Sequence record: NC_019404.1
Source: Escherichia phage vB_EcoS_ACG-M12
Length of the DNA: 46,054 bases
Direction: 5' to 3' (one strand)
Every line of letters begins with the position of its first letter. Within the stretch, counting starts at the first letter, position 1. The notes under the pieces were generated by a model. That model was not told the origin of the DNA. It searched no databases and was given only the letters and a program-made list of their open reading frames with translations. The position numbers were made by a program, and so were the translations under genes. Positions 1-46,014 of the stretch are shown here, piece after piece.

Positions 1-138
1 TGAACTCTTTCTTTATATGCAAACTTGAAACAGGCGATTCTCATTTTTGTGTGATGCATTCGATTGAAAAAGTCAATAGATGAGAGAAAGAAAACGGGCA
101 ATTTACGCAACTTTTTGCAAATTAATCCTCGCCACAAG

Positions 139-400
139 GTTACATGTAACTTTAGTTATCGCGTGTAGATAATCTGCAATAGTTACGCATATAACGCCAA
201 ATCACGCGCTGGTTACAAATAAATCCCTTATATATAAACAACTTAGATTTATTATTATTATTATTATATATATGTAACTAATGTAACCATGTCATCGGGC
301 GCGTTGATTGAAAATCCTATATTGCGCGCGACTTTTATTTATATATTAGCGGAAGGTATAGCACCCCATTTAGGTCGGTTACAGCTGTCTACTCGGTTAC
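139..400. repeat. GTTAC/GTAAC iteron cluster with 12-bp perfect palindrome GTTACATGTAAC (139-150) and (ATT)5 run (251-265)
   Basis: GTTAC or GTAAC copies at about 139, 146, 182, 212, 274, 283, 378 and 396; AT-rich non-coding leader of the first + operon. Confidence 0.6.
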
Positions 401-478
401 ACTCGCAGGAATAAAGGTGTCAGCAAAATAATTTGTGTAAATTTTGAGTATAACGCTTGTCTACGCGTAATTGAGGTA

Positions 479-488
479 GTATAGTTAT
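479..488 (+). promoter_or_regulatory. -10-like box GTATAGTTAT upstream of gene 528
   Basis: Same TATAGTTA(C) box as in the repeated cassette, but without the upstream dyad box. Confidence 0.35.
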
Positions 489-527
489 CTCACACCAAAG
501 AGAGGTGTCATTGAAAGGGTTATTAAA

Positions 528-1025
528 ATGCAAAAAGTTAGTTTGGGTGAAGTTGTACGTTACATGGTCAAGAAAGCTATCAATTCTGAGAGTGGTGAGT
601 TTGTGATTCCGGTAAGCTATATAGCCGCTCAGGTTTATGGTGCTGACCCAATCGTCATTAGCAAGGAAGACATGGAAAAAGGTGGCGTGTATGACATGAC
701 AAAATTAAAGTCTTCATACGTAGCGAACACATCCAGCAGAATGCCTGAGGTCATTGAGCGAGATTTTAGAGCTAAGATATCTTTTGTTGAAGAGCTTTAT
801 GATGATTCCTATCAGGATTGCGCCAAAATCACAATGGTTAAGGGTGCGGTAAGAAAAGGTTCACGCAAGGCATCCGACCGAATGAAAGAACAAAAGATTA
901 TTGAAGGATTCAGGGAGAAATTACTATCAGTGATGCCTGACCTAAGCCACCTGGAAGGTAATGACATAATCATAGCAGTTAACGCAATCAAGGCAATGAA
1001 AGAAGTTATTAAGGAGATTAAATAA
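528..1025 (+). CDS. hypothetical early protein (165 aa)
   Basis: ATG with upstream AAAGGG; first gene of a tightly packed operon. Confidence 0.5.
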   Translation: MQKVSLGEVVRYMVKKAINSESGEFVIPVSYIAAQVYGADPIVISKEDMEKGGVYDMTKLKSSYVANTSSRMPEVIERDFRAKISFVEELYDDSYQDCAKITMVKGAVRKGSRKASDRMKEQKIIEGFREKLLSVMPDLSHLEGNDIIIAVNAIKAMKEVIKEIK

Positions 1026-2970: not shown

Positions 2971-3212
2971 TGATGTTTGGATTATCAGAAGCACACTTCA
3001 ACGCAGTTAAACGCCAGGCAGCAAAGTTGAACGAAGAGTACAGCAAGTTATCGCCAAAACAGCGCAAGGACGATAAGCAGGTTGCGGCATTGATTTCTAA
3101 GATGTGGGAACCAGTGTTCACAATCATTAGTCGAGATAGATTTGTCTGGACTAGTGGATATCTTAAGGGTCGCGTTGGTCATGACGAGAATGGTCAATCG
3201 TTGTACGAATAG
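2970..3212 (+). CDS. hypothetical protein (80 aa)
   Basis: ATG overlapping the upstream stop. Confidence 0.5.
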   Translation: MMFGLSEAHFNAVKRQAAKLNEEYSKLSPKQRKDDKQVAALISKMWEPVFTIISRDRFVWTSGYLKGRVGHDENGQSLYE

Positions 3213-3486
3213 ATTGGATTGTTAAAAAAGAGCTTGCATCACTGAGTGGAAGTATATAATATTAATCACGTAGACAGGCGAGGCCACTAAGTGGCAACGG
3301 CGCACGGAGCGCAACTACTAAGTCCGTTGCTCATTAAGTAGCGTATGCGGCACACTTCCCAGTATGGGCTTTATCCCATTAGGGACTTGTAAGACCTAGA
3401 GCAAATAGGCAATCAAATCGGTCGTAACAGGCGACGCTGGATCCGTAACCAGCAATCTTCATCTAGCAAGTCTAGCTAAAGATTAT

Positions 3487-3561
3487 GCTCTGTTAGCTTA
3501 ATGGAAAAAGCCGCAGCCTTCTAAGCTGTTGATGGTGGTTCGACTCCACCACGGGGCGCCA
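3487..3561 (+). tRNA. tRNA-Arg(UCU)-like, 75 nt with encoded CCA
   Basis: Hand-folded cloverleaf: acceptor GCTCTGT/ACGGGGC (two G-U pairs), D-stem GCTT/AAGC with GG in the loop, anticodon stem GCAGC/GCTGT with loop CTTCTAA, T-arm GGTGG-TTCGACT-CCACC, discriminator G, CCA. Confidence 0.6.
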
Positions 3562-6347: not shown

Positions 6348-6391
6348 AGTTCGAGGTAAAATTCGAGTAACCACAAAAGCTATGATAAACT

Positions 6392-6413
6392 AGCCCCTAC
6401 ATGGGGCTTTTTT
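6392..6413 (+). terminator. rho-independent terminator
   Basis: AGCCCC-tacat-GGGGCT followed by a T6 run. Confidence 0.65.
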
Positions 6414-6427
6414 ATTGGAGAAATGCA

Positions 6428-9381: not shown

Positions 9382-9398
9382 TAGTTAAGACTAAACTA

Positions 9399-9420
9399 AC
9401 CCGCTTCGGCGGGTTTTTTA
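9399..9420 (+). terminator. rho-independent terminator
   Basis: ACCCGC-ttcg-GCGGGT plus T6; the same hairpin sequence recurs at 14138. Confidence 0.7.
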
Positions 9421-9460
9421 TTGCCTATCATCTCATCATTGCGTGGTCTAAAAACTCGTG

Positions 9461-12434: not shown

Positions 12435-13091
12435 ATGGCCCATCTCAGCAATGGCACGCAGGTCTTCGTAGAAGGCTCTCGCGGAGCTGCAATTGACGTA
12501 ACAGCAATTTCTAACGCAGTTACACCTGTTTTAACTGTATCTGACGCATCCGGCGTGGCTGAGGGTGATTACCTGCTTTTCACCTCCTCAGCCTCTGCGC
12601 TTCTGGCTGACAAGCAAGTTCGCGTAACCGCAGTCTCTGGCACCTCGGTAACTGTTGAGGGTATTGATACCTCAAGCACTACCAAATTCCCTGCTGGTTT
12701 AACTGGTGAGGTTGTCAAGATTACTTCATGGTTCGAAGTTCCGTGCGTTCAGGACGTATCTACTGACGGCGGCGAGCAGCAGTTCGTTAACTTCCAGTGT
12801 CTTTCTGATGACCGTGAACAGCAGATTCCGACTTATAAATCTGCCGTAACAAACACCTTTACCTTTGCTCACGAGTACACCAACCCGGTTTATCCGGTTC
12901 TGCGTAACTACGATGAGTCTGGCCAGGTTGTTGCGATTCGCCTGTTCGTACCTCGCGCTCAGGAAATGCGCTTGCAGTCCGGCACTATCGCTTTCAACGA
13001 CACCCCTACCATTGGTGTTAACGAAATCGAAACGGTATCTATCGCGGTATCCATTCGTGGTCGCTTGTCCTCCGTGGCAGCTGAAGTTTAA
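12435..13091 (+). CDS. major tail protein (218 aa)
   Basis: Position directly upstream of the chaperone/tape-measure genes; followed by a strong terminator. Confidence 0.6.
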   Translation: MAHLSNGTQVFVEGSRGAAIDVTAISNAVTPVLTVSDASGVAEGDYLLFTSSASALLADKQVRVTAVSGTSVTVEGIDTSSTTKFPAGLTGEVVKITSWFEVPCVQDVSTDGGEQQFVNFQCLSDDREQQIPTYKSAVTNTFTFAHEYTNPVYPVLRNYDESGQVVAIRLFVPRAQEMRLQSGTIAFNDTPTIGVNEIETVSIAVSIRGRLSSVAAEV

Positions 13092-13098
13092 AACACAA

Positions 13099-13121
13099 AC
13101 CCTCTTCGGAGGGTTTTTTTA
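13099..13121 (+). terminator. rho-independent terminator
   Basis: ACCCTC-ttcg-GAGGGT plus T7. Confidence 0.7.
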
Positions 13122-13124
13122 TTG

Positions 13125-13818: not shown

Positions 13819-14138
13819 AGAGGGCGGTGTATCTACAGTACCAGTCAGAGCCAACTGATGCCGAACTGGAGGCTATTGGGATGCGCCGCTCTGATTACGA
13901 AGATGAAGAGCCTGAAGTTTTACACTTCGACGAAAACATGATGAAAGCATGGGACATTTACTGTTCAATGGCTACGCAGTGGAGAGTCGGAGCTAACGGA
14001 GCTACAGGTCTAGATTACAACGTGCTAAATTTCCTCTTTAGAGTGTATAATGTCTCAGAAGAAGAATTGGTGCTCAGCGATTTACGCATCCTTGAAGCTA
14101 AGGCTCTTGAGATGATGGATAACCTGAGAAAAAAATAA
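13504..14138 (+). CDS. predicted frameshifted chaperone fusion (GT-like) via -1 slip at 13809-13815
   Basis: ORF 13827..14138 is in the -1 frame relative to 13504..13818 and has no ATG of its own (track start is GTG); classic arrangement before the tape measure. Confidence 0.5.
13809..13815 (+). other. candidate -1 programmed frameshift site A_AAA_AAC
   Basis: X_XXY_YYZ heptamer in the zero frame (GTA AAA AAC TAA); the -1 frame stays open into ORF 13827..14138. Confidence 0.55.
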
Positions 14139-14158
14139 CCCGCTTCGGCGGGTTTTCT
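14138..14158 (+). terminator. terminator-like hairpin (attenuator?)
   Basis: ACCCGC-ttcg-GCGGGT followed by TTTTCT; the tape measure gene starts 16 nt later. Confidence 0.4.
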
Positions 14159-14173
14159 ATTATGGAGGCTTAG

Positions 14174-17152: not shown

Positions 17153-17223
17153 TAGCACTAAATGGTAAAGCCAAAAGGATTTGGCTTGCTATAATCAACT
17201 CATTAAAAGCATGAGGTGATAAA
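17151..17223 (+). promoter_or_regulatory. conserved intergenic cassette (AATAGCACTAAATGGTAAA ... TTGGCTTGCTATAATC)
   Basis: Box directly after the tape-measure stop; TGCTATAAT extended -10-like box at 17187-17195. Confidence 0.5.
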
Positions 17224-17721
17224 ATGAACTGGAATGATATTTTTGAGTATAGAGATGGGGTTCTTTATTGGAAGATTTCAACAAGCAACAAATCAAGAAA
17301 AAAGATTGGTGATGTTGCGGGTAATCAAATGAATGATGGATACATAATGGTTCAGGCATTTGGCAAAAGAATGCTTGCTCATAGGGTTGTTTGGGAAATG
17401 CATAATGGCAGAATAACTAATGGCATGCATATAGACCATTTAAACCACATAAGGAATGACAACAGGATAGAAAACCTAAGACTGGTGTCAAGAACAGAAA
17501 ACAACAGGAATAAATCACTGTCAAAAGTAAACAAAACAGGTGTTTCAGGAGTTAGATTAAAAGATGGGCTATTTGAGGTTTCGATAGGTGGAGAAAAAAA
17601 CAAGACTTACATAGGAAGGTTCTACACACTGGATGAGGCTAGAGCAGCAAGGAAATGCGCAGAATTTGAACTTAATTACCACAATAATCATGGGGATTGC
17701 AATGGCGATAGACACATTTAA
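17224..17721 (+). CDS. HNH homing endonuclease with AP2-like DNA-binding domain (165 aa)
   Basis: HRVVWEMHNG...IDHLNHIRNDNRIENLRL HNH motif; paralogue of gene 39194; inserted between the tape measure and the M-like gene. Confidence 0.75.
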   Translation: MNWNDIFEYRDGVLYWKISTSNKSRKKIGDVAGNQMNDGYIMVQAFGKRMLAHRVVWEMHNGRITNGMHIDHLNHIRNDNRIENLRLVSRTENNRNKSLSKVNKTGVSGVRLKDGLFEVSIGGEKNKTYIGRFYTLDEARAARKCAEFELNYHNNHGDCNGDRHI

Positions 17722-18845: not shown

Positions 18846-18911
18846 ATAGCACGAATTGCTAAAGACGATTTAAAAAGATGGGGTATAGTTACCCAATCGA
18901 AACGAGAGGAG
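18845..18911 (+). promoter_or_regulatory. conserved intergenic cassette (AATAGCACGAATTGCTAAA ... GGTATAGTTACC ... CAATCGAAACGAGAGGAG)
   Basis: Box at 18845-18863, TATAGTTAC at 18884-18892. Confidence 0.55.
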
Positions 18912-20091: not shown

Positions 20092-20644
20092 TATTAAGTT
20101 AGGCCTGTCACTAGGTCGTAAGTTTGGAAAGATTCACCAGATGGCAGTGAATAGCGTGCCTGAAGCAATGCGAGCGCTTTGCTCTCAGATCCCTGCTTTC
20201 AAAGAGTTCATGAATAGCCATATAGGGCAAAACGCAAGGTACGCAGTATTTGTAGATGGTAAAAATGTGAACGAGCATCGAATCTCTGATTTTAGTGCCG
20301 TTCAGGAGATACGCATCTTGCCAATCCCGCAAGGCCGAAAGTCAGGCGGTTTGTTTCAAACAATTTTGGGTGCCGCGCTTATCACGGTAGGTATCTTCAC
20401 TGGTCAGATTTATCTTGTCGGCGCTGGCGTTTCCCTAGCTGCTGGTGGTATTGCTCAGCTGTTATCACCGCAAGCAACTGGATTGAAGACTCAGAACAAC
20501 CAAACAAGCAACCGTGCATCATACGCATTCGGATCCGCTGTAAACACAGTGGCCGCTGGATATCCAGTCTGCCTACCATATGGCTATCGAACGGTTGGCG
20601 GCTCGGTGTTTAGTGCTGGCAGCTACGCCGAAGACAATGCTTAA
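20072..20644 (+). CDS. tail assembly protein, lambda I-like (190 aa)
   Basis: Overlaps the K-like 3' end; hydrophobic Gly-rich middle segment; position before the J-like gene. Confidence 0.55.
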   Translation: MTQKLIDIKLGLSLGRKFGKIHQMAVNSVPEAMRALCSQIPAFKEFMNSHIGQNARYAVFVDGKNVNEHRISDFSAVQEIRILPIPQGRKSGGLFQTILGAALITVGIFTGQIYLVGAGVSLAAGGIAQLLSPQATGLKTQNNQTSNRASYAFGSAVNTVAAGYPVCLPYGYRTVGGSVFSAGSYAEDNA

Positions 20645-20651
20645 ATATCAT

Positions 20652-20675
20652 ACCCGCCTAGTGCGGGTTTTTTAT
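20652..20675 (+). terminator. terminator-like hairpin
   Basis: CCCGC-ctagt-GCGGG plus T6. Confidence 0.5.
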
Positions 20676-20724
20676 TTAGTGTAGAATGGCACAAATGATC
20701 AAAACAAACATGAGGCTTTGTGAT

Positions 20725-25679: not shown

Positions 25680-25753
25680 CTTGTTGCTCCTTTTTAGTTT
25701 ACCTGGAAATGGTACATCACCCATGAGATTTGTCTTTAGCAATTAGTGCTATT
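25680..25753 (-). promoter_or_regulatory. conserved intergenic cassette, minus orientation
   Basis: Reverse complement of 25735-25753 reads AATAGCACTAATTGCTAAA; precedes gene 25419..25679. Confidence 0.45.
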
Positions 25754-26050
25754 GGTTACGCGTAACCGATGTAACTCGATGTATACCATATCCATCCGCG
25801 GGAAATCAGTTACGCCATATTGCGCACAGTTACGCTTTAGTTACACTAAAATATCTATATATATAAAGGGTTTAGATAATTATTATTATTATCTATATAT
25901 ATAGTGTAACTGCTGCAACTCATAATATTGGTATGTTGCGTTTGTTTTTCTATATGATGATTATCTTTGTTATCTGGCGTGGCTAAATGGATGTAGGGTG
26001 TGGTGCACCACATAAAAGATACCGTTACATTGGTTACATGTGAGTTACAT
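25754..26050. repeat. GTTAC/GTAAC iteron cluster with 14-bp perfect palindrome GGTTACGCGTAACC (25754-25767) and (TTA)n run (about 25878-25891)
   Basis: Direct repeats CAGTTACGC at 25808 and 25827; further GTTAC copies at 25839, 25906, 26023, 26033, 26045; divergent intergenic region. Confidence 0.6.
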
Positions 26051-26177
26051 TGAGGATTTATGCGGTCTGCGGTGGCTAAAAACGTAACAAAGGAGAGCCT
26101 ATACATGAAATTACGTCATTTGACGCGTAATCATAATTTATTAATCGGTGATATCTATTGGACTGCGCTGCCACCCT

Positions 26178-26621: not shown

Positions 26622-27583
26622 CATTCAAAGTCTACACGCGAGAAGAGTTAAGCAACGAAGAGTACCACTCTGAAACTGATCACATCTCTGGCAGTTCACT
26701 AGTTGAGATTATCCAGGGTTCACCAGCAAAGTGGAAGTTCAAGCAGCTCAACAGTTGTAGCAAGGCTCTTAAGTTTGGCACATTAAGCCACTGCATGATT
26801 CTAGAACAAGATGTGTTCGATAAAGAATACCTTCGAGCAACAGACCTTGAAGCTATTGAGGGGTTAATTACAAGTCAGACCGCATTATCGGCAGCACTGA
26901 AAAAAGTTGGTGTAGCTGGCACGTCAGGGAAGGGCTATAGCGAGCTTGTAGAGATGATGTATCGCTCTGGTGAGGATTGGCCTATTAAATGGTTAATTGA
27001 GCAGCAGGAGAGCGCTCAGGCTCTTGTAGAGGGTAAGGAACTGGTAAGCGCAGCGGACTACGACAAAGTGGTAGCGATGCGCGAGGTTCTCTGCAACATT
27101 CCGGCATATGATAAGATTGTTAACAGCGAAACGGCGCAGAAAGAGTTATCAATCTTTGGTGAGATTCTCGGTGTAGGAGTGAAGATTCGAATTGATCACG
27201 TAGATGTAATTGATGGTGTTGTGATGATCAACGATTACAAGACGACGGCAGATGCAGGCCCTGAAGGATTCGGCAAATCGGCCTTCTCTCACGGATACCT
27301 GGCAAAAATGTCACTTCAGCGCGATCTGTTTGTTAAGGCATTTAACGAAAAGAGAAAGGTCGTAGTTGGCCTTCTGGCGCAGGAGAAGGTGGAACCATAC
27401 CTTCCTATGAGGTACATATTGACTGACGAGCAACTTCGCATTGGAAGGCTACAGTATATTGAAGCGCTAGCTACTTACAAGAAGTGCAAAGAGCTTGATA
27501 TTTGGCCTGGTTATTCAAATGGAATTACAGAGCAAGAACTGATGATTCCTGATTGGGCAATTAAGCAGTATAAAGAGATCTAA
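26618..27583 (+). CDS. PD-(D/E)XK recombination exonuclease (321 aa)
   Basis: IDHVDV...MINDYKTT catalytic D...D/E-x-K arrangement; directly upstream of Erf and SSB. Confidence 0.6.
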   Translation: MTFKVYTREELSNEEYHSETDHISGSSLVEIIQGSPAKWKFKQLNSCSKALKFGTLSHCMILEQDVFDKEYLRATDLEAIEGLITSQTALSAALKKVGVAGTSGKGYSELVEMMYRSGEDWPIKWLIEQQESAQALVEGKELVSAADYDKVVAMREVLCNIPAYDKIVNSETAQKELSIFGEILGVGVKIRIDHVDVIDGVVMINDYKTTADAGPEGFGKSAFSHGYLAKMSLQRDLFVKAFNEKRKVVVGLLAQEKVEPYLPMRYILTDEQLRIGRLQYIEALATYKKCKELDIWPGYSNGITEQELMIPDWAIKQYKEI

Positions 27584-28815: not shown

Positions 28816-29215
28816 AGTCTGTTTCAAATGTGGTGGGCTTAAGCCCATCACGGAGTTCTATAAACATAAAGCCATGGCTGACGGACGTGTAAATAAGTGT
28901 AATGAATGCAATAATGTTGATGTTAAATCAAATAGAAAATCAAAAATAGAATATTACAGAGAGTACGATAGAGAAAGGGGCAATAGACAGAAGGATGGTT
29001 ACGTTAAGGAGTATAGATCAAGAAACCCCATAAAATATAATTGCCACACGATTTTAAATAACGCTATAAGGGATGGTAAGATCAATAAAAAACCTTGCGA
29101 GGTTTGCGGGAATGATAAGGCGGTAGCTCATCATGATGATTACTCAAAACCAATGGATGTAAGATGGCTATGCCAAGCTCACCATATGCAATGGCACGCA
29201 GAAAACGGAGAATGA
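28805..29215 (+). CDS. HNH endonuclease with zinc ribbon (136 aa)
   Basis: CxxC ... CxxC (CFKCGG, CNEC) and AHHDDYS...WLCQAHHMQWH; start at the in-frame ATG overlapping the ssb 3' end (track start is TTG). Confidence 0.6.
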   Translation: MYYKVCFKCGGLKPITEFYKHKAMADGRVNKCNECNNVDVKSNRKSKIEYYREYDRERGNRQKDGYVKEYRSRNPIKYNCHTILNNAIRDGKINKKPCEVCGNDKAVAHHDDYSKPMDVRWLCQAHHMQWHAENGE

Positions 29216-29231
29216 TTAAACGGATAAAAGA

Positions 29232-29257
29232 TAAGGCCCCCTTCGGGGCCTTTTTTA
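29232..29257. terminator. bidirectional terminator between convergent genes
   Basis: AGGCCCCC-ttcg-GGGGCCT plus T6. Confidence 0.7.
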
Positions 29258-32074
29258 CGAAGCTGTATTTACCTGAAGATATGCACCATTAGTTGCACCA
29301 AACCATGCGTAAGCAGATCCGTAAGTTGTTGGGTTGTCATTTAAAATGAAATCACCCGCTCTAATTACGCACTTTGCTCCATATGTATCAGTGGGTCTTG
29401 CACTAAACCCATAGTCAACATATCTAAAACCAACCTTCGTTACGTTATCGTTAAGCGGGAAGATCCTTAAGAAGCTGGAATCTCTAAAGTCATTGTTCCT
29501 GAAAATTCCTCCTGTAAAGTTATCCATATCAAACATTGTTGTTAAACTTGAAGCAACAGTATTCATGAACTTGTTGCCTTCATATGTCGGAGCTACTACT
29601 TCATAGCCAACTCTTAGCTGAACAAATCCCCCATCAATAATATTGTCCTTGACTATTGGATATTGCCCGCCGATTGCTAAGCCACCAAACCCAGGTGTAA
29701 ATTTGCAACTATTATTACTAAATATAGTGCCAACCCACGCCTGATTTGTAAGGTATGGTGCCTTAGTGTCTGTCATGGTGTTCCCGGTGATAATCAATCC
29801 ATTCTTGGCCTGGATTCCCTCCTGGTAGCCCTGAATCGCTACGCCGCCACCAATCATAATGTTGCTGGATATAATAATGTTGCTCAACCCCTCATTAACA
29901 CCCCAATCACTTTCTGCATCATTTGTTATCAGTAAGTAGTGAGAAGAAGCCCTGCCAGTAGCGTCCGTAGTTATAATGCTTGTATTGCCTTTGCATATAA
30001 CATTGTTTGCCGCAAAAACCTCAACAAACATACCAGCACCTTCGTAGTAGTTATCCGTAACCGTTACGTTATTGCCAGCCGGGGTTATCCTTGACTGGAT
30101 AGATATTGGATAATAGAACTTGTTGGCGTGAGCGTAAGACCTTCGGCTTCCCTCGGATATTGCATAATCCTCCGCGAAAGTATGCCATGCCCTTCCTGAC
30201 TGTTTTGTTGTGTTTCCTATAAACTCTGAGTAGTCACAGTTTCTTGTGATTAAGCAGTAGTTAGCGTTGTATCTGAAGCTTGAATTTCTAAGAGATACGA
30301 ATGCATTAGGTAAGCCATTAAGAGCATCGGCATTAACAAAGGCCCTCGAGGCATTAACCTCCATACCCTCGATCACAACTGATGCGCATCCTTCAACCAT
30401 AAAACCAAACCAGTCTTCTCTTGGTTTATGCTCTGTATCCGTTGGTTGGATTGAGTAATCTGAAAAGTCAGTATTCCAGTTGAGTCCGCTAGCTTTAAAT
30501 GTGCAATATTTAAGCCCGAAAACAACCCTCTCGGGTGATGTGCTTCCAGAGATATCAATATCAACATCATTATTGGCAAAAATGTCAACAGTAAGTCCAT
30601 TGAGGAAGAATGCCGTTTGCCTTAACACTCTGTACTTATCATTGTACTGAACACCATCGGAGAATGAGACTTTCAGTCTTCCAGCGCTAATTCTTACCTT
30701 CCTGTTTGTATTGTGACCAAGGTTTATACATGCCATAACCGAGGCGTTTGATTCATTAACTCCAGACACATCATGACCAGCCCATTCGGTATGGATATCA
30801 TCAACACCTCCCGTAAACCTAACCCAGCAACCATTTTTACCTGGTGATGTCTCACCCGCTCCGCTAAGGAATCCTGGGAGCGTGGAATATGTACCATCAA
30901 ATGGAACTGTTGGGCTAAAGATGGTAACCCCATTGTGACTACTCTTGCTTACTGATGGATCCCAGTAAAACAAACCACCTCCAGAGTTTGCTCCAGAAAT
31001 ATAAGACCTGACATTTGCCAAGTTTCCATTCGTAGTTGGTTGCCGGATTAGTTCATAAATTGAATTAACTGAAGATAGCCCTAAATTACTCCTGGCAAGG
31101 CTTTTATCTTCAATATCAGAGAAATTCAATGATTTGTTGAAAGTCTCAGATTTTGAATAAACATCAAGTAAGCCCCTTACTCGCTGGGCGCTAGCTCCGC
31201 CAACCTGACTTCCTGATGCGACATAAAGCGCCTCTCTTGAATAGTAAGTTTTGCTTGGTGCCGTGCCAGTCTGAGTTAAATCAATCACCCTGTACGCATT
31301 ATCTGAGCCGGTAGATGCTGAAACTTGTATGTTCTTAACACCAGTAAGCCCCCTTGCTGACTTAACCTCAATCGTACAAAGTGTGCTATCGGAGTAGGTT
31401 GTATTTATCACCTCTGGAGCGTTGATCATTGCTGACTTTTGGCATAGGTATCTAGCCCCGGACTTGAAATCAAACGTATTCCAGTCAAGTTCTGTCAACT
31501 GAGGTGTATTCGAGCCACCAATACCAATATTGGCAAGAGTTACCAAAGTACCAGCGTCACCAGCATTATTAATTGCTGCAATTGTAGCGTCACGGGCAGC
31601 TGTTGTTGTGTTTCTTGCACTAACAGCAGTAGCAGCGCTATCTGCGGCGGCAATCTGGCTAGCTAAAGCATCCGCTGCTCCTTGCACTGACTGGCTTGCC
31701 AATTGCTCAAAGCGAGGCCAATCAAAAGAATCCTGACCAATGAAATCAATCAGGCTCTGAATGCTAGTTTCCCTACTCTGATAATAACGAAGTGTCTCCG
31801 CTACATTTTGAGCCAAACCCTGAACGCTAATCCCATCATGAGCAAGAATGGCATATCCAGTACCAGCAGGAACAGTTTCGCCATTTGGGTTATATACAGA
31901 CAATGAAGTGTCGCTGGTGATTTCAGAGATGGTGTAAATCTGCACAGGCTCTGTTTTGAATACAATTGTAGCACCAACACGGATTAGCGTTAGTGGCATG
32001 GTCCATTGAGTGCCAACACCAGTAACTTGACCGTTAGCTGCTAAACTGGCAGTTCCAGTATCATAAATTGCCAT
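29255..32074 (-). CDS. tail fibre/receptor-binding protein, possibly with a beta-helix domain (939 aa)
   Basis: N-terminus MAIYDTGTASLAANGQVTGVGTQW typical of fibre N-termini; Ala-rich shaft; Asn/Gly/Thr-rich C-terminal two-thirds; start at the ATG after GGAG. Confidence 0.6.
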   Translation of the reverse strand: MAIYDTGTASLAANGQVTGVGTQWTMPLTLIRVGATIVFKTEPVQIYTISEITSDTSLSVYNPNGETVPAGTGYAILAHDGISVQGLAQNVAETLRYYQSRETSIQSLIDFIGQDSFDWPRFEQLASQSVQGAADALASQIAAADSAATAVSARNTTTAARDATIAAINNAGDAGTLVTLANIGIGGSNTPQLTELDWNTFDFKSGARYLCQKSAMINAPEVINTTYSDSTLCTIEVKSARGLTGVKNIQVSASTGSDNAYRVIDLTQTGTAPSKTYYSREALYVASGSQVGGASAQRVRGLLDVYSKSETFNKSLNFSDIEDKSLARSNLGLSSVNSIYELIRQPTTNGNLANVRSYISGANSGGGLFYWDPSVSKSSHNGVTIFSPTVPFDGTYSTLPGFLSGAGETSPGKNGCWVRFTGGVDDIHTEWAGHDVSGVNESNASVMACINLGHNTNRKVRISAGRLKVSFSDGVQYNDKYRVLRQTAFFLNGLTVDIFANNDVDIDISGSTSPERVVFGLKYCTFKASGLNWNTDFSDYSIQPTDTEHKPREDWFGFMVEGCASVVIEGMEVNASRAFVNADALNGLPNAFVSLRNSSFRYNANYCLITRNCDYSEFIGNTTKQSGRAWHTFAEDYAISEGSRRSYAHANKFYYPISIQSRITPAGNNVTVTDNYYEGAGMFVEVFAANNVICKGNTSIITTDATGRASSHYLLITNDAESDWGVNEGLSNIIISSNIMIGGGVAIQGYQEGIQAKNGLIITGNTMTDTKAPYLTNQAWVGTIFSNNSCKFTPGFGGLAIGGQYPIVKDNIIDGGFVQLRVGYEVVAPTYEGNKFMNTVASSLTTMFDMDNFTGGIFRNNDFRDSSFLRIFPLNDNVTKVGFRYVDYGFSARPTDTYGAKCVIRAGDFILNDNPTTYGSAYAWFGATNGAYLQVNTAS

Positions 32075-32140: not shown

Positions 32141-32162
32141 AAAAAAACCTCCCGAAGGAGGT
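32141..32162 (-). terminator. rho-independent terminator for the minus-strand primase transcript
   Basis: Reverse complement reads ACCTCC-ttcg-GGAGGT plus T7. Confidence 0.65.
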
Positions 32163-33088
32163 TAGTTATTCAATAAATCACTTGCCTTATATATCTTCTT
32201 CCTTATTCCGCTCTTGAATGAGTTTTCATCATTTGGTATTACCACATCAAGATTGCGATCATCAGCAACGGCGAGTAAATCAAAATCATGACGAGTACAA
32301 GCGACGCGTAACTTGTAGTCTCTAAGCGCATAAGCAACCATTTCCATGTTGTAACTGGAGTAGCAAACAAGCACACACCGGTTGCCAGTAGCAAGATGAA
32401 CGCGAACACCATCAATCCAATTATCGACCAGATAAGAGTACTCATCATCCTTAAGGGAACCAATAACAGAAACAGATTGGCGAGAATAATCTTTTGCAGC
32501 ATAACTAACATCTCCTTCCTCATTGATAAACATTACATTGCACATTTCTTCTGATATACCGTCACTATAAGCCATGAAGCACGGTATTGCGTGTATTAAT
32601 TCACCGGATTTTGTCCTACCAACATCAAATCCAAACTCGCTATAAATACCCTCGTATGTACTTAGCGGGGTTGATTCTACTCTTTCCGTCCTTTCCAGTA
32701 TCTCTAAGCATCTTTCGTGGTCAATCTGCGCGCCCATCTTGTATGGTGATGTCCTCGATGCTCTTTTGTTTGCTTTAGCTACTATCTCAACTGGAACCAG
32801 ATTTAACCAGTCACCTAATACATTTATACACTCACTAAAAGACTCTCCTCTTAGTTTCTGCACCCACAAAATTCCATCGCCTGACCCACACTGGTTGCAA
32901 ATGATTCCACCATCCCCAGGTTCACTAACTTTATCAGTCCACCTGCTACGGTCATTACCGCCACAATACAAGCATGGTTGATGCTTCTTAGTTTTAAAGA
33001 AGTTTGGGTCTGCCCCGCAAATCTGAACCATTGCGTCAGCCCATAAACCTTTCATCTTTTGTAGTACTTCTTTCTTATCGTGATTCAT
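32162..33088 (-). CDS. DNA primase-like protein with N-terminal zinc-binding motif (308 aa)
   Basis: CLYCGG-x17-CNQCG zinc ribbon near the N-terminus; start at the ATG 5 nt after GGAGG. Confidence 0.45.
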   Translation of the reverse strand: MNHDKKEVLQKMKGLWADAMVQICGADPNFFKTKKHQPCLYCGGNDRSRWTDKVSEPGDGGIICNQCGSGDGILWVQKLRGESFSECINVLGDWLNLVPVEIVAKANKRASRTSPYKMGAQIDHERCLEILERTERVESTPLSTYEGIYSEFGFDVGRTKSGELIHAIPCFMAYSDGISEEMCNVMFINEEGDVSYAAKDYSRQSVSVIGSLKDDEYSYLVDNWIDGVRVHLATGNRCVLVCYSSYNMEMVAYALRDYKLRVACTRHDFDLLAVADDRNLDVVIPNDENSFKSGIRKKIYKASDLLNN

Positions 33089-36440: not shown

Positions 36441-36598
36441 TGAGAGAGGCAATCGTAAACTGGAAAACCGGAGAAGATTCAAAGTTCTTCTTCAATACAT
36501 TCTCACAATATATTGACAAGTTTGTTTTCGTGATTGATGGTGGATGTGAGGTTGTTGTTCCAATTAATCTGGTTGATGTATTGGAGGTATCAGAATAA
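36440..36598 (+). CDS. hypothetical small protein (52 aa)
   Basis: TAATG overlaps at both ends; below the track cutoff. Confidence 0.35.
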   Translation: MREAIVNWKTGEDSKFFFNTFSQYIDKFVFVIDGGCEVVVPINLVDVLEVSE

Positions 36599-36819
36599 TG
36601 GCAATTTTTACATTTGAGAATCAATGGGAAGTATTTAAATTAATGGCAGTCCAGGAGCTAAAGAAATCTGGGTATAACAAAAACCCATGGGACTTAGTAT
36701 TTTGTCTTGACATGAGCTTTGAAGAAGACTACCTGAATACCGACATCGAAACATGGCGCGACCGCATGGTTGCTGATATCGAAGAAATGAAGAAAGATTG
36801 CCATGAGGATTTCTTATGA
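36598..36819 (+). CDS. hypothetical small protein (73 aa)
   Basis: ATG overlap-coupled. Confidence 0.4.
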   Translation: MAIFTFENQWEVFKLMAVQELKKSGYNKNPWDLVFCLDMSFEEDYLNTDIETWRDRMVADIEEMKKDCHEDFL

Positions 36820-37016
36820 TTAATAATAGACCGTTCGTTGTTACGTTTAAGCCAAGAAACAACACCCCACGGATGGATATTGATGAGTACCTTCTGAAAC
36901 GAGGAAATAGCTATTTTGTTCTTGAAATTTCAGCAGACTCAGATAGGTATATAGTAAAAAACGATGCTGGTATTGTTGTTAGTGTTTCAAAATTGGATGT
37001 GGAGATTGTGAGATGA
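36816..37016 (+). CDS. hypothetical small protein (66 aa)
   Basis: ATGA overlap. Confidence 0.4.
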   Translation: MINNRPFVVTFKPRNNTPRMDIDEYLLKRGNSYFVLEISADSDRYIVKNDAGIVVSVSKLDVEIVR

Positions 37017-39122: not shown

Positions 39123-39193
39123 TAGCACATTTTGTTAAAACAGTAGCCGCGAAAGCGGCTATTATTGTTTTATACAAACGGGAGGGGATTTAA
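39121..39193 (+). promoter_or_regulatory. conserved intergenic cassette (AATAGCACATTTTGTTAAA variant) containing hairpin TAGCCGC-gaaa-GCGGCTA
   Basis: Precedes the HNH gene at 39194. Confidence 0.45.
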
Positions 39194-39688
39194 ATGGATT
39201 GGAATGATTTTCTTGAGTATAGAGATGGCAGGCTTTACTGGACTGACCCGCATTCAACAAAACTCAAGCCAGGTGATGAGGCTGGCAGCAGGCACCATAT
39301 GGGTTATTGGTACATTCGCAGATATGACAAAACAATGTCAAGGCACAGAATCGTATGGGAGATGCACAACGGACCAATACCAGAAGGCATGGAGATAGAT
39401 CATATAAATCACGCCCCTGGTGATGACAGGATTGAAAACCTAAGAATGGTCACAAGAAGGCAAAACAATCAAAACAAGAAATTAGATGGAAGAAATACAA
39501 GCGGACACGTCGGGGTCAGCTTGAACAAGAAGACAAACAAATGGAGAGCAATGATAGGCATAAAGGGAGAGGACGGAAAGAGGAAAACTCTATACGTTTA
39601 CTATGGTGATTCTTTCGATGACGCAGTGTCAGCAAGAAAGAGAGCTGAGGTTGAGTACTCATTTCACGAAAATCACGGAAGAAGCTAG
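39194..39688 (+). CDS. HNH homing endonuclease with AP2-like domain (164 aa), paralogue of gene 17224
   Basis: MDWNDFLEYRDGRLYW ... HRIVWEMHNG ... IDHINH ... RIENLR; clear paralogy with the 17224 protein. Confidence 0.75.
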   Translation: MDWNDFLEYRDGRLYWTDPHSTKLKPGDEAGSRHHMGYWYIRRYDKTMSRHRIVWEMHNGPIPEGMEIDHINHAPGDDRIENLRMVTRRQNNQNKKLDGRNTSGHVGVSLNKKTNKWRAMIGIKGEDGKRKTLYVYYGDSFDDAVSARKRAEVEYSFHENHGRS

Positions 39689-42251: not shown

Positions 42252-42586
42252 TAGCTAAATAACTCGTCGTCAGTCATGTTTCCTATGTTCATCATTTCCT
42301 TTATGTACTTACTATCATAACCGTTCAGTGCTTCGAAGTTAAACTCAAAAGGCCTCTTCAAACTCCCTCTACTAACAAACTCACCACACTTACCATCAAT
42401 ATATCCTGAGCTTAACATCTTTGCGCAGAACTCCTTTGAAGCTGCACTGCAAAACTTCCGATGTGGCAAACCTGCCGCCTTGCTAAACCTCTCTGAATCT
42501 TTGTGCTTGTATATGAATCGCGCCAAATGCTGGCGCGTAAAATAACTGTAGGACTCGCAAAATCTGTATAAATCAAGAAGAAACAT
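42251..42586 (-). CDS. hypothetical protein (111 aa)
   Basis: ATG start; directly downstream of the DUF3987-like gene on the minus strand. Confidence 0.45.
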   Translation of the reverse strand: MFLLDLYRFCESYSYFTRQHLARFIYKHKDSERFSKAAGLPHRKFCSAASKEFCAKMLSSGYIDGKCGEFVSRGSLKRPFEFNFEALNGYDSKYIKEMMNIGNMTDDELFS

Positions 42587-42589
42587 AAA

Positions 42590-44173
42590 TCACCCCATTA
42601 CACGTGGATTAACATAAACACGGTCATCAATCATGCAAACGTAGTTACGTTCTTCAAGCATTGGGATTAAGTGGTCCTTAATCTTCGTCATTACACCGGC
42701 CTGAGATTCGAATGGCTTAACCTTTCTTGCTGACTCATACAGCGCGCGAAGGCTAACAAAACCTTTACCAGCCTTACCCATTTTCAAAGCCAGGTCGATA
42801 AGTTTATTCATCTCTGCGTTATCACCAGCATGACCTGCGGCATTAGCAGAAGATAAATATGTTTTGCTTAACTCGTTAAACATTAATACCGCCTCCTGCA
42901 TGGTTTCTAATTCAATCTCACGAGACTTTTTAGGATTGCCACCTTCTTCAGATACCCAATTGCGAACAGTATGAATAACCGAAGCTATACGGATTGCCTG
43001 CTTGTCAAATTTACCAAGTGCGCCTCGTAACATAGTGTGACTGTATTTACCTCCATCACGTAAGTGCGGTTCCATATCCTGGCGAGCACGGTTTAGATAA
43101 CGCATGGCTGAATCACTAATAGTTAGCTTAACATCCACCTCACTCATGATGTTGTGAATAAGTTTAAAGTAAGTCGCCTTAAGCGCTCCATCAATAGGTT
43201 CATAAGTTGAGCGACCTTCATCATCAACAAAAACACGTTCACCTAAGAATGATTTCTCACGAACAAGCAAAAAACGCTCTGATACACCGATACCGCGAGC
43301 ACCAGCATTCATGATTGCGTTGATTGTCTCATCTTGTGCAATTACAGAGATGCAACCCAGCGCAGTAAAAGACATGTTGTTTTCAGCGTTAGCACGAGCA
43401 ATAGAAACATCGCCAGAGTCCCATGCCTTAAGAACCAATTCACTGTTTGTCTTTTTGCTCCCGTCGCCATAAGTCATGCCTAATAATGAGTTTACAGAAG
43501 TTGCTTCATCAGATATTACAGCAAAGTTACCTTGACGGAAGTTAATTCGCGCAAGACCTTCTGGAGTTGTATCAGATACCGGAAAAACAACATCGCATAA
43601 CTTCTCTAACTTCTCCTCAAGATTCTCTTTATCCTCAAATAATCTCGCCATTTCAGAAGGTGATTGCTCCTGCTTCATTTCTTTAGCGAGAGAAGATAGT
43701 TTTGCCATAATCTTTTTTCGTTCACGCTTACGTTCCTCGTTGATTCTGTCTCGTTCAGCAATCATTGGCGCAGTTGCCAGGCTGTTAATTGCTGATTTAC
43801 CAGTTGAAGGAGGTTGGCTTGTAACAACATAAAGCGCGGTTGGCTGAGTTGTTCCGTGATACTCAACGGTAAAACGACCCAGCATTGCAGAAGATACGCA
43901 GCCTAAAAAGTGCATATAGGCAGAAGATGATGGGAACTGTACTGATCGGGCGATGTTGGCTGACAGCTTGCCTACCACATCAAAATCATTCCCGAGGCTT
44001 ATTACAGGATATTTATCATTGCAATTCTCAACCTCTACTGGGTCCTTCCAGAATGACTGAGCATATCGCATACCGTTCGCTTTAATTGCCACACGAAGCG
44101 GGGAGATGCCTTGCTGCTGCGCAATAGCCATAACCTGGTCAACACTCAACTTACTGGATTCGAACTCAAACAT
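42590..44173 (-). CDS. P-loop NTPase, DUF3987-like, putative replication/helicase-associated protein (527 aa)
   Basis: Walker-A-like YVVTSQPPSTGKSAIN; size; start at the ATG 10 nt after GGAG (track start is GTG). Confidence 0.45.
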   Translation of the reverse strand: MFEFESSKLSVDQVMAIAQQQGISPLRVAIKANGMRYAQSFWKDPVEVENCNDKYPVISLGNDFDVVGKLSANIARSVQFPSSSAYMHFLGCVSSAMLGRFTVEYHGTTQPTALYVVTSQPPSTGKSAINSLATAPMIAERDRINEERKRERKKIMAKLSSLAKEMKQEQSPSEMARLFEDKENLEEKLEKLCDVVFPVSDTTPEGLARINFRQGNFAVISDEATSVNSLLGMTYGDGSKKTNSELVLKAWDSGDVSIARANAENNMSFTALGCISVIAQDETINAIMNAGARGIGVSERFLLVREKSFLGERVFVDDEGRSTYEPIDGALKATYFKLIHNIMSEVDVKLTISDSAMRYLNRARQDMEPHLRDGGKYSHTMLRGALGKFDKQAIRIASVIHTVRNWVSEEGGNPKKSREIELETMQEAVLMFNELSKTYLSSANAAGHAGDNAEMNKLIDLALKMGKAGKGFVSLRALYESARKVKPFESQAGVMTKIKDHLIPMLEERNYVCMIDDRVYVNPRVMG

Positions 44174-45592: not shown

Positions 45593-45756
45593 TTATCCTG
45601 GCCTTTTAAATTATGACGCTCTCTCAGAACTTCAACCCATTCTTGCGCGTCATTCTCTCTCATGAAGAAACTTAACTTTGGGTACTTGTGAAACCCTTTA
45701 AGTTCAACTATCCAATGGCCACCTTCGTAACTATAACTAACTTTCTTCTCTGTCAT
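45589..45756 (-). CDS. hypothetical small protein (55 aa)
   Basis: Open frame from ATG to the TGA that overlaps the next ATG; below the track cutoff. Confidence 0.3.
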   Translation of the reverse strand: MTEKKVSYSYEGGHWIVELKGFHKYPKLSFFMRENDAQEWVEVLRERHNLKGQDK

Positions 45757-45995
45757 TTTGTTACCTTTTGAGTTTTTTTTGTTATCGACATCTCTTCAAC
45801 GTACTCGCTACAACTCGGGATTTTACTCCCGGCCCGGCATCCTAACAAAAGGACCCGCTCGGCGCTTTGGTGGGTGAGGTAACGCTTCCTCACATTGCGC
45901 GGTATCATTTACCCTTTTTAGTCCCTTTCGGGAGTGACTCAGAGTCTGCTACCGTGTCGATGAAATGAAGTATACGCACATCGATTCAATATGTC

Positions 45996-46014
45996 TTTAG
46001 CAAAAAGTGCTATT
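45996..46014 (-). promoter_or_regulatory. dyad box, minus orientation (reverse complement AATAGCACTTTTTGCTAAA), at the head of the terminal minus operon
   Basis: Followed in the minus direction by about 240 nt of GC-rich structured leader before the first small gene. Confidence 0.4.

Follow-up and report, generated by a model that had tools for sequence, protein, structure and literature searches.

Escherichia phage vB_EcoS_ACG-M12 (NC_019404.1; called vB_EcoS_SCS31 in our analysis) is a T1-like siphovirus of the Drexlerviridae (Braunvirinae, Guelphvirus), and its complete record of 46,054 bp is the window analyzed here, to which all positions refer. Our data show that the gap at positions 1-527 and a second large gap at 25725-26059 host two copies, termed A and B, respectively, of the same ordered element, in which short phased repeats adjoin an AT-rich core. 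Judging from the sequence, we see about an even chance that positions 139-290, probably together with 376-402, and positions 25754-25911, probably together with 26024-26052, are paired replication origins, each of the iteron-plus-unwinding-element type.

The original prediction for this DNA, made from the letters alone, had described 1-527 as a noncoding control region ahead of the first early operon, with GTTAC/GTAAC motifs typical of iteron-type origins or multi-site operators. The region is indeed noncoding by annotation (the first gene starts at 528 and none lies upstream), and its GC content is 35.1%, compared with 43.5% for the genome and 6.8% for the core of copy A (229-272). It is not a single unit, though, but combines a pac-proximal segment (1-135), copy A (139-290), a set of repeats (376-402), and a separate conserved promoter (457-485). 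The parts of copy A and the repeats downstream of it are as follows:

139-150, unstranded: palindrome GTTACATGTAAC, with a single occurrence in the genome
163-170, plus strand: conserved block GTGTAGAT (GATGTATAC in B copies), found in B copies too, with TGTA invariant in six A copies
181-188, 193-198, 202-207, and 211-217, plus strand: four phased direct repeats, namely AGTTACGC, AACGCC, TCACGC, and GGTTACA
229-272, unstranded: AT core, the proposed DNA unwinding element (DUE), composed of (TA)4 at 229-236, AACAACTTAGATTT, (ATT)5 at 251-265, and (TA)4 at 265-272
266-273: TA run ATATATAT
273-289, plus strand: tandem TGTAACTAA / TGTAACCA
375-383 and 393-401, plus strand: two direct repeats TCGGTTACA, 18 bp apart
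376-383 and 394-402: CGGTTACA and CGGTTACAC, 18 bp apart

All of the repeats that had been listed, as well as the palindrome, the (ATT)5 run, and the TA run, are present, with the coordinates of the downstream pair off by one (376/394, not 377/395). The direct-repeat units follow one another at a pitch of 9-11 bp, the final unit stops 11 bp short of the core, and the core is bracketed, TGTAACCA at 282-289 being the perfect inverted partner of TGGTTACA at 210-217. Phased direct repeats beside a very AT-rich segment represent the layout of iteron-type origins, and, judged by sequence alone, either of the two proposed readings, origin or multi-site operator, may apply.

The GTTAC/GTAAC sites in 1-527 number 8, compared with 1.3 expected from the genome density. 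None of 2000 dinucleotide-preserving shuffles of the region attained this count, which is reached by 1% of genome windows. An unbiased k-mer test revealed GTTACA/TGTAAC as the top-enriched non-AT hexamer (7 versus 0.28 expected). The sole window of the genome that is richer in GTTAC/GTAAC lies at ~25685-26084, over the second large gap (25725-26059), with 11 sites, and this gap hosts copy B, which the original prediction had not included:

25754-25911, plus strand: copy B, with a palindrome at 25754-67, AGTTACGC at 25808 and 25828, AGTTACAC at 25839, the core at 25856-25903, and TGTAAC at 25905-10
25754-25767: palindrome of B, GGTTACGCGTAACC
26024-26052, plus strand: three downstream GTTACAT repeats at a pitch of 9 and 11, directly next to the ribosome-binding site for the gene at 26060

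With 76% mean column identity, A and B have the same order of parts, i.e., a palindrome, a (G/A)TGTA(G/T)A block, phased (A)GTTACGC/GTTACA units, a (TA)4...(ATT)n...(TA)4 core, TGTAAC, and further GTTACA repeats, the last of which precede the first rightward gene in both cases. The far-side TGTAAC and the last direct unit form a perfect 8-10-bp inverted bracket in each copy (AGTTACACTA / TAGTGTAACT, 25839-48 with 25902-11, in B), and runs of at least four TA units are essentially confined to A and B. Equivalents of the downstream TCGGTTACA repeats are the three GTTACAT repeats in B (26024-26052), three copies of GATTAACAC in T1, and two of GTGAACA in TLS.

The two cores are also distinguished by duplex stability. 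Ranking by nearest-neighbor energies in 40-, 60-, and 100-bp windows over the whole genome placed cores A and B at the two lowest stability ranks for all three sizes in the window phage, T1, Rtp, TLS, and Klebsiella phage 1513, the last of which has a genome GC content of 50.6% and still has its stability minima in the cores. In the window phage, core A is the least stable at 40 bp and second at 60 and 100 bp, with B filling the other rank. The cores lie ~5 standard deviations off the mean, and the 60-bp gap to rank 3 is 7-12 kcal/mol. The single-strand DNA fold of 130-295 is ordinary (z = -1.55), and an Rfam scan of the window detected only tRNA-Arg (3487-3558) and no RNA family in region A.

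Comparison with relatives revealed that the AT core, which the original prediction had not singled out, is the most conserved part of the element. Core A shows ~80% conservation across Rogunavirinae and Nouzillyvirus, and copy B is conserved across 132 phage records. To examine the register of the units, we used 13 copies, of both A and B, from three subfamilies and Nouzillyvirus. These copies contain 3-4 ACG(C/T)/TTACA units at -44/-45, -34/-36, -24/-26, and -15/-17 relative to the first TA run, and 36 of their 37 unit spacings are in helical phase, compared with 29% in genome controls; the probability of four units in a random 62-nt window is 0.0026. Within the units, the invariant alignment columns are ACG/GTTAC. 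The GTTAC-type sites and their spacing are therefore conserved in related phages, where the original prediction had named the loss of this spacing, together with a lack of protein binding, as evidence against itself.

The literal GTTAC word, by contrast, is not conserved in the family, as the unit word is GTTAC here, while Webervirus has CTTAC, T1 copy A has ATTAC (ATTACGCC and GATTAACAC), and TLS has GTTCAC, with TTAC as the common kernel. The TLS word GTTCAC/GTGAACA has 5 sites versus 0.48 expected, and the word (A)TCTTAC(C)/GGTAAGA of Klebsiella phage 1513 has 11 versus 0.16 expected and brackets the core in inverted orientation. Since the word drifts while the architecture is kept, and since A and B use one shared word within the window phage, TLS, and Webervirus, these observations suggest a phage-encoded, co-evolving binder and not a fixed host factor. 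The downstream "inverted GTAAC" pair of the original prediction turned out to be a tandem ATGTAnnT repeat that varies in concert among phages (two TGTAAC here, two TGTATA in Rtp, two TGTAGA in 50EP), and the (ATT)n run has 4-7 units depending on the phage.

A finer comparison is provided by ECH1, a 95%-identical sister of the window phage. There are no substitutions in 218-272 and 376-402 against a background of 5.3%, and the core and unit 4 of both copies are unchanged between the two phages. The 12-bp palindrome, which had been presented as a key feature, is broken in ECH1: relatives carry a TTACGCGTAA-like palindrome at the 139-150 position, and the ECH1 version is degenerate, with 4 substitutions. 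Region A as such is not a substitution hotspot, as its 5.3% divergence is one among several mosaic patches, some of which are coding and differ at 4-11%. The two genomes are of equal length and differ at 1.31% of positions over 24000-46054, in sharply bounded patches (27001-27500, 29001-30000, 36501-37000, and 42501-43000; with a maximum of 11% in the 3' portion of the gene for exonuclease VIII), a pattern of recent mosaic recombination.

These data bear on the simplest alternative, namely that the region is a low-complexity AT-rich spacer whose repeats arose by chance and have no specific function. Short motifs do recur readily in AT-rich DNA, and both the loss of the palindrome in ECH1 and the 5.3% divergence of the region between the sisters would fit such a spacer. 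It would leave unaccounted for the count that no shuffle attained, the ordered parts in two copies and five lineages with fixed phasing, the conservation of B in 132 records, and the core and CGGTTACA pair that are free of substitutions against their background, and we therefore consider it extremely improbable.

Returning to the origin reading, we postulate the following mechanism. A phage-encoded, sequence-specific protein would occupy the four phased TTACGC/GTTACA units and the inverted partner across the core; the candidates are the neighboring winged-helix DUF7174 protein or a Cro-like helix-turn-helix (HTH) protein. The resulting complex would melt the (TA)n-(ATT)n-(TA)n core, the least stable duplex of the genome, where the MCM-like DUF3987 helicase and the zinc-ribbon primase would be loaded and from which the host polymerase would extend. 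The palindrome near the leftward promoter may serve as an operator for autoregulation that uses the same half-sites, a scheme known from iteron plasmids. Variation in the length of (ATT)n would be tolerable for an unwinding element, not for a promoter spacer. The proteins in question are encoded as follows:

528-1025, plus strand: DUF7174 protein (rtp1 homolog), candidate binder 1, the first gene right of A in every T1-like phage examined
33144-33650, minus strand: Cro/CI-like HTH protein, candidate binder 2, between the primase and helicase genes
42590-44173, minus strand: DUF3987 protein of 527 aa (Pfam E 1e-40) with a winged-helix module at its C terminus, a predicted MCM-like (superfamily 6, SF6) AAA+ helicase and the proposed replicative helicase of the phage
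32162-33088, minus strand: primase with a P4-alpha/T7-type zinc ribbon (PF08273, E 4e-10; PHROG "DNA primase")

The DUF7174 protein has a predicted winged-helix N-terminal half and a C-terminal helical hairpin; Foldseek found nothing significant for it, and a search for related loci with a DUF7174 query gave none. It diverges far faster than the replication proteins, with 18% identity to T1 and 26% to TLS. For the HTH protein, there are sub-threshold Pfam HTH hits and the PHROG label "transcriptional regulator," and its putative recognition helix varies among phages. The AlphaFold2 model of the DUF3987 protein has a predicted local distance difference test (pLDDT) score of 88, and its top 49 Foldseek hits in the Protein Data Bank (PDB) are all MCM subunits, with a template modeling (TM) score of only ~0.35. 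Sequence searches of the PDB gave no matches. DUF3987 is an SF6 helicase, one member of which was shown to be a 5'-3' helicase and the partner of a BT4734-like primase-polymerase (PMC11724360). The C-terminal winged helix of DUF3987 is unlikely to be the sequence reader, as its third helix is acidic and conserved. A stand-alone paralog of this module, 39-49% identical, is encoded by the second gene right of A in AHP24 (L002, 2598-2768), in 50EP (L006, 2619-2801), and in the uncultivated viral genomes L120, L122, L126, and L129, and is lacking in the window phage, Rtp, T1, and TLS. Stretches of ~81-82% identical DNA are shared by the HNH endonuclease genes at 17222-17504 and 39192-39468, which makes them paralogs resembling homing-endonuclease genes, with insertion sites in the tail and replication modules.

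Several observations weigh against paired origins. The words of T1 copy A differ from those of T1 copy B, so that a model of one protein and one motif is too simple, and ECH1 differs from the window phage at unit positions 182 and 194 in addition to the 4 hits in the palindrome. A and B lack DnaA boxes (TTWTNCACA). The consensus of integration host factor (IHF) is not conserved, and in a scan of four genomes the Rtp-B core had the one perfect match; being absent from the cores of the window phage, T1, and TLS, an IHF site is not a general core feature. DnaA and IHF sites are no universal requirement of phage origins. GC skew tracks gene orientation and is uninformative on origins, the fold matches of the candidate binders amount to generic winged-helix or HTH similarity, and our literature search found no marker-frequency, two-dimensional gel, or plasmid replication data on the element. 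Taken at face value, DNA that is rich in AT and in repeats and lies between early operons would be just as compatible with a transcriptional control region.

The latter possibility deserves a closer look at the promoters around A. Region 1-527 is the right part of a divergent intergenic region that spans the record ends, flanked by leftward genes that end at 45756/45908 and by the rightward operon that begins at 528; the left edge (45969-46013) and region A are contiguous in the records of AHP24 and 50EP, which are opened elsewhere. The annotated open reading frame of 51 aa at 45753-45908 (minus strand), for which PHROG and Pfam gave no match, shares sequence with a promoter-like TTGTTA-N17-TAAAAT (45848-45820) and is possibly no genuine gene, in which case the noncoding region would grow to ~820 bp. 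Two promoters were recognized:

457-485, plus strand: sigma70-type promoter of the rightward operon, TTGTCT-N17-TATAGT, with hexamers conserved and spacer variable across six phages
45997-45969, minus strand: leftward promoter AAGACA-N17-TATACT, fused to a copy of the 21-nt repeat, ATAGCACTTTTTGCTAAA, at 45996-46013

The 21-nt repeat of the family, aaATAGCACnnnTTGnTAAAA, is known from the TLS paper, where its function is an open question; it is oriented with transcription and lies ~76 nt upstream of the start codon (PMC11447400). In the window, it (ATAGCACnnnTTGnTAAA) has 21 copies versus 0.6 expected, e.g., at 1306-1323, 2116-2133, 18846-18863, 25735-25752 (minus strand), and 45996-46013 (minus strand). 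It contains a TAGCA-N5-TGCTA palindrome and is found just upstream of promoter-like AAGACA-N16/17-TATAGT(TAC) sites. Between late genes, there are terminator-like hairpins with a GC stem and a T run (6382-6416, 9388-9422, 13088-13122, 14127-14161, and 20642-20676), and the one at 13088-13122 is directly followed by the 21-nt repeat, i.e., the "transcripton" layout described for T1. None of the 21 copies is on the plus strand of 1-527, the nearest ones being the minus-strand copies at 45996-46013 and 25735-25752, and the GTTAC element is therefore a different entity. As a binder of the invariant 21-nt repeat, the HTH protein was tentatively set aside on account of its variable putative recognition helix.

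According to the transcriptional explanation, the repeats would be operators through which the Cro-like HTH or the DUF7174 protein switches the early operons from A and B, and the AT core would be an upstream curved or RNA polymerase-recruiting segment or a weak promoter pair. It is consistent with the fact that the operons without a 21-nt repeat at their start are those running rightward from A and B, with the position of the three GTTACAT repeats of B next to the ribosome-binding site of the first gene, and with that of the B palindrome next to a leftward promoter. In addition, weak GTTACA-N16/17-AATAAT matches occur on the minus strand in both cores, the annotation of AHP24 has a promoter there, and the first downstream gene encodes the predicted winged-helix protein. 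However, the conserved promoter of the A operon (457-485) is ~190 bp from the core, and the element, which lies between this promoter and the leftward one, is needed as neither of them. The core (229-272) was also rejected as a sigma70 promoter, as its matches are weak (9/12) and no more common than in shuffled sequence, and the polymorphism of (ATT)n would disrupt any fixed -35/-10 spacing. Moreover, copy B of Webervirus is in a one-strand setting between primase and exoVIII and thus outside a divergent promoter gap, and transcriptional control leaves unexplained why every genome tested has its thermodynamic minima in the two cores. Collectively, we regard this explanation, the main alternative to paired origins, as possible but rather unlikely.

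Region A also borders the presumed packaging start of these phages, and the segment concerned is the following:

1-135, unstranded: pac-proximal segment, single-copy and absent from B, with the record start corresponding to the T1 left end

Copy A could, in principle, be part of a pac recognition complex for the TerS protein, which belongs to the P22 gp3 family, with the repeat arrays flanking a bendable AT segment. Indeed, the records of T1, Rtp, the window phage, ECH1, MM01, and TLS all begin 215-233 bp left of the core, the T1 terminal repeat is annotated from position 1 (repeat_region 1-2800), and published work assigns pac to this untranslated region without giving its exact site (PMC11447400, PMC7718038). 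In the Rtp-like phage MSK, PhageTerm put the headful start at 36,862 (PMC8421802), which aligns to position 91 of Rtp, 83 of T1, and ~113 (+/- 30) of the window, i.e., ~115-140 bp left of the core. By this homology, the packaging start would lie in the left segment 1-135, outside the repeat/core element; TTGCAAT/TGTTGC repeats occur within this segment in relatives. The element is also present twice per genome, B being without the left segment where the cut maps, whereas a restriction digest of TLS gave one sub-molar pac fragment (PMC11447400). A second copy and a cut that maps outside the element weaken a packaging role of the element itself. A likeness of AGATTTAT in the core to the P22 pac is confined to some A copies and was discarded as a general feature; phages with 91%-identical TerS carry a different left segment, and co-variation of TerS with the left segment was uninformative. 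We therefore judge it decidedly unlikely that the element is the packaging site. The origin, operator, and packaging readings are not mutually exclusive.

The origin reading also draws on similar repeat-plus-AT-core elements beside DUF3987 genes in unrelated phages. A scan of viral contigs for the AT-core pattern yielded mostly unrelated AT-rich loci, and DUF3987 was found among the 120 loci only in T1-likes and in one unrelated viral contig, L109, from a phage or satellite. In the latter, GTTAC/GTAAC repeats bracket a (ATT)4(TA)4 core directly downstream of a gene pair encoding BT4734-like and DUF3987 proteins, and this locus is likely a pri-rep-ori module. Its reverse complement at ~3200-3520 also contains GGTCACA repeats and three copies of a 23-nt AAACG(T/C)AATACAGCATTGAATT. 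In the distant phage L140 (36% identity), an HTH gene directly precedes primase-DUF3987, and the gap that immediately follows DUF3987 holds the least stable window of its 21 kb, with a TATATATAAC...TATTATTATATATATC core. Another distant phage, L139, has 10 CTTACA versus 0.31 expected in the gap upstream of its DUF3987 operon; a (CAA)12 run at 9389-9430 lies amid the 10 CTTACA/TGTAAG sites, upstream of this DUF3987-primase-DEAD helicase operon.

Tentatively, and with clearly less confidence than in the origins as such, we suggest a more specific version, in which T1-like phages would replicate from two paralogous origins, each a microsatellite unwinding element bracketed by mini-iterons with a TTAC core, to which a small winged-helix or HTH protein of the phage would bind so as to load the MCM-like SF6 DUF3987 helicase. 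This would represent an archaeal-style "inverted boxes - DUE - MCM" logic in a classical coliphage, which mobile elements that encode DUF3987 would have in common with it.

T1 belongs to the seven classical T phages and, to our knowledge, its replication origin has never been mapped, although the original genome papers on T1 (2004) and Rtp (2006) may contain an earlier description of these regions. The element is the best candidate so far for a T1-like replication origin, being precise, conserved, present in two copies, and accompanied by a short list of candidate binders. According to recent genome papers on T1 relatives, neither an origin nor iterons could be located (PMC11447400, PMC7718038). 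Our terminase search retrieved 1002 phage records, mostly T1-like phages of Klebsiella, Escherichia, Salmonella, and Shigella, and T1-like phages include therapy candidates as well as notorious laboratory and fermentation contaminants. If correct, the assignment would permit consistent annotation of these regions, help to define minimal replicons and engineering-safe sites, and give the widespread, little-studied DUF3987 helicases their first cis-acting partner.

Among known systems, a close layout is found in the phage lambda ori, where four phased O-protein iterons are followed by an adjoining AT-rich region of ~40 bp and then a palindrome. In both cases, four phased direct repeats abut an easily melted AT-rich segment, with inverted symmetry beyond it. 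The units described here are contiguous and ~10 bp long, however, whereas those of lambda are ~19 bp, and the element is intergenic and present in two copies, whereas the lambda ori lies inside the initiator gene; there is no O/P homolog here, and the helicase is the phage-encoded DUF3987 rather than host DnaB. Dispersed related origins are known from Bacillus phage SPP1, whose oriL and oriR each have initiator-binding repeats beside an AT-rich region. The window phage likewise has two sequence-related origin-type copies with repeats beside AT-rich DNA in a lytic genome, although no G38P homolog was found here, the repeat sequences differ, and the SPP1 oriL is inside a gene. Replication from the SPP1 oriL is the subject of PMC5737612. 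A layout of phased repeats next to an AT-rich segment is also that of iteron plasmids (F RepE, R6K pi, and pPS10 RepA).

Satellite phage P4 combines ori/crr with the alpha primase-helicase, and its short repeat occurs in direct and inverted orientation at two loci. The two repeat loci and a primase zinc ribbon of the same family (PF08273) are common features, and the TGTTCAC of TLS resembles the P4 octamer TGTTCACC. Unlike P4 alpha, which has an SF3 domain, the window phage has a separate SF6 DUF3987 helicase, with the acidic third helix in its winged helix, and an alpha-type primase-SF3 helicase with an origin-binding C-terminal domain was not found in the window. In the pac of phage P1, hexamer arrays flank an IHF site and the cleavage region, which resembles the repeat arrays on both sides of a bendable AT-rich center near the packaging start, except that here the mapped cut is outside the arrays, the IHF consensus is limited to the Rtp-B core among four genomes, and a second copy is in mid-genome.

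In archaeal origins, inverted origin recognition box (ORB) elements bracket the DUE where MCM is loaded. Inverted sites bracket the putative unwinding element here as well, and the helicase has a predicted MCM-like fold, while no Orc1/Cdc6 homolog was identified here and the likeness is architectural only, with a TM score of ~0.35. Finally, SaPI-type islands represent the pri-rep-ori modules of mobile elements, and modules with a BT4734-like PrimPol and a PriCT-DUF3987 helicase have been described in mobile elements (PMC11724360). The T1-like element differs from pri-rep-ori modules in being dispersed in two copies, kilobases from the helicase gene, and agrees with them in having short repeats that flank an AT-rich region, which is the exact layout that L109 displays beside its primase and helicase genes.

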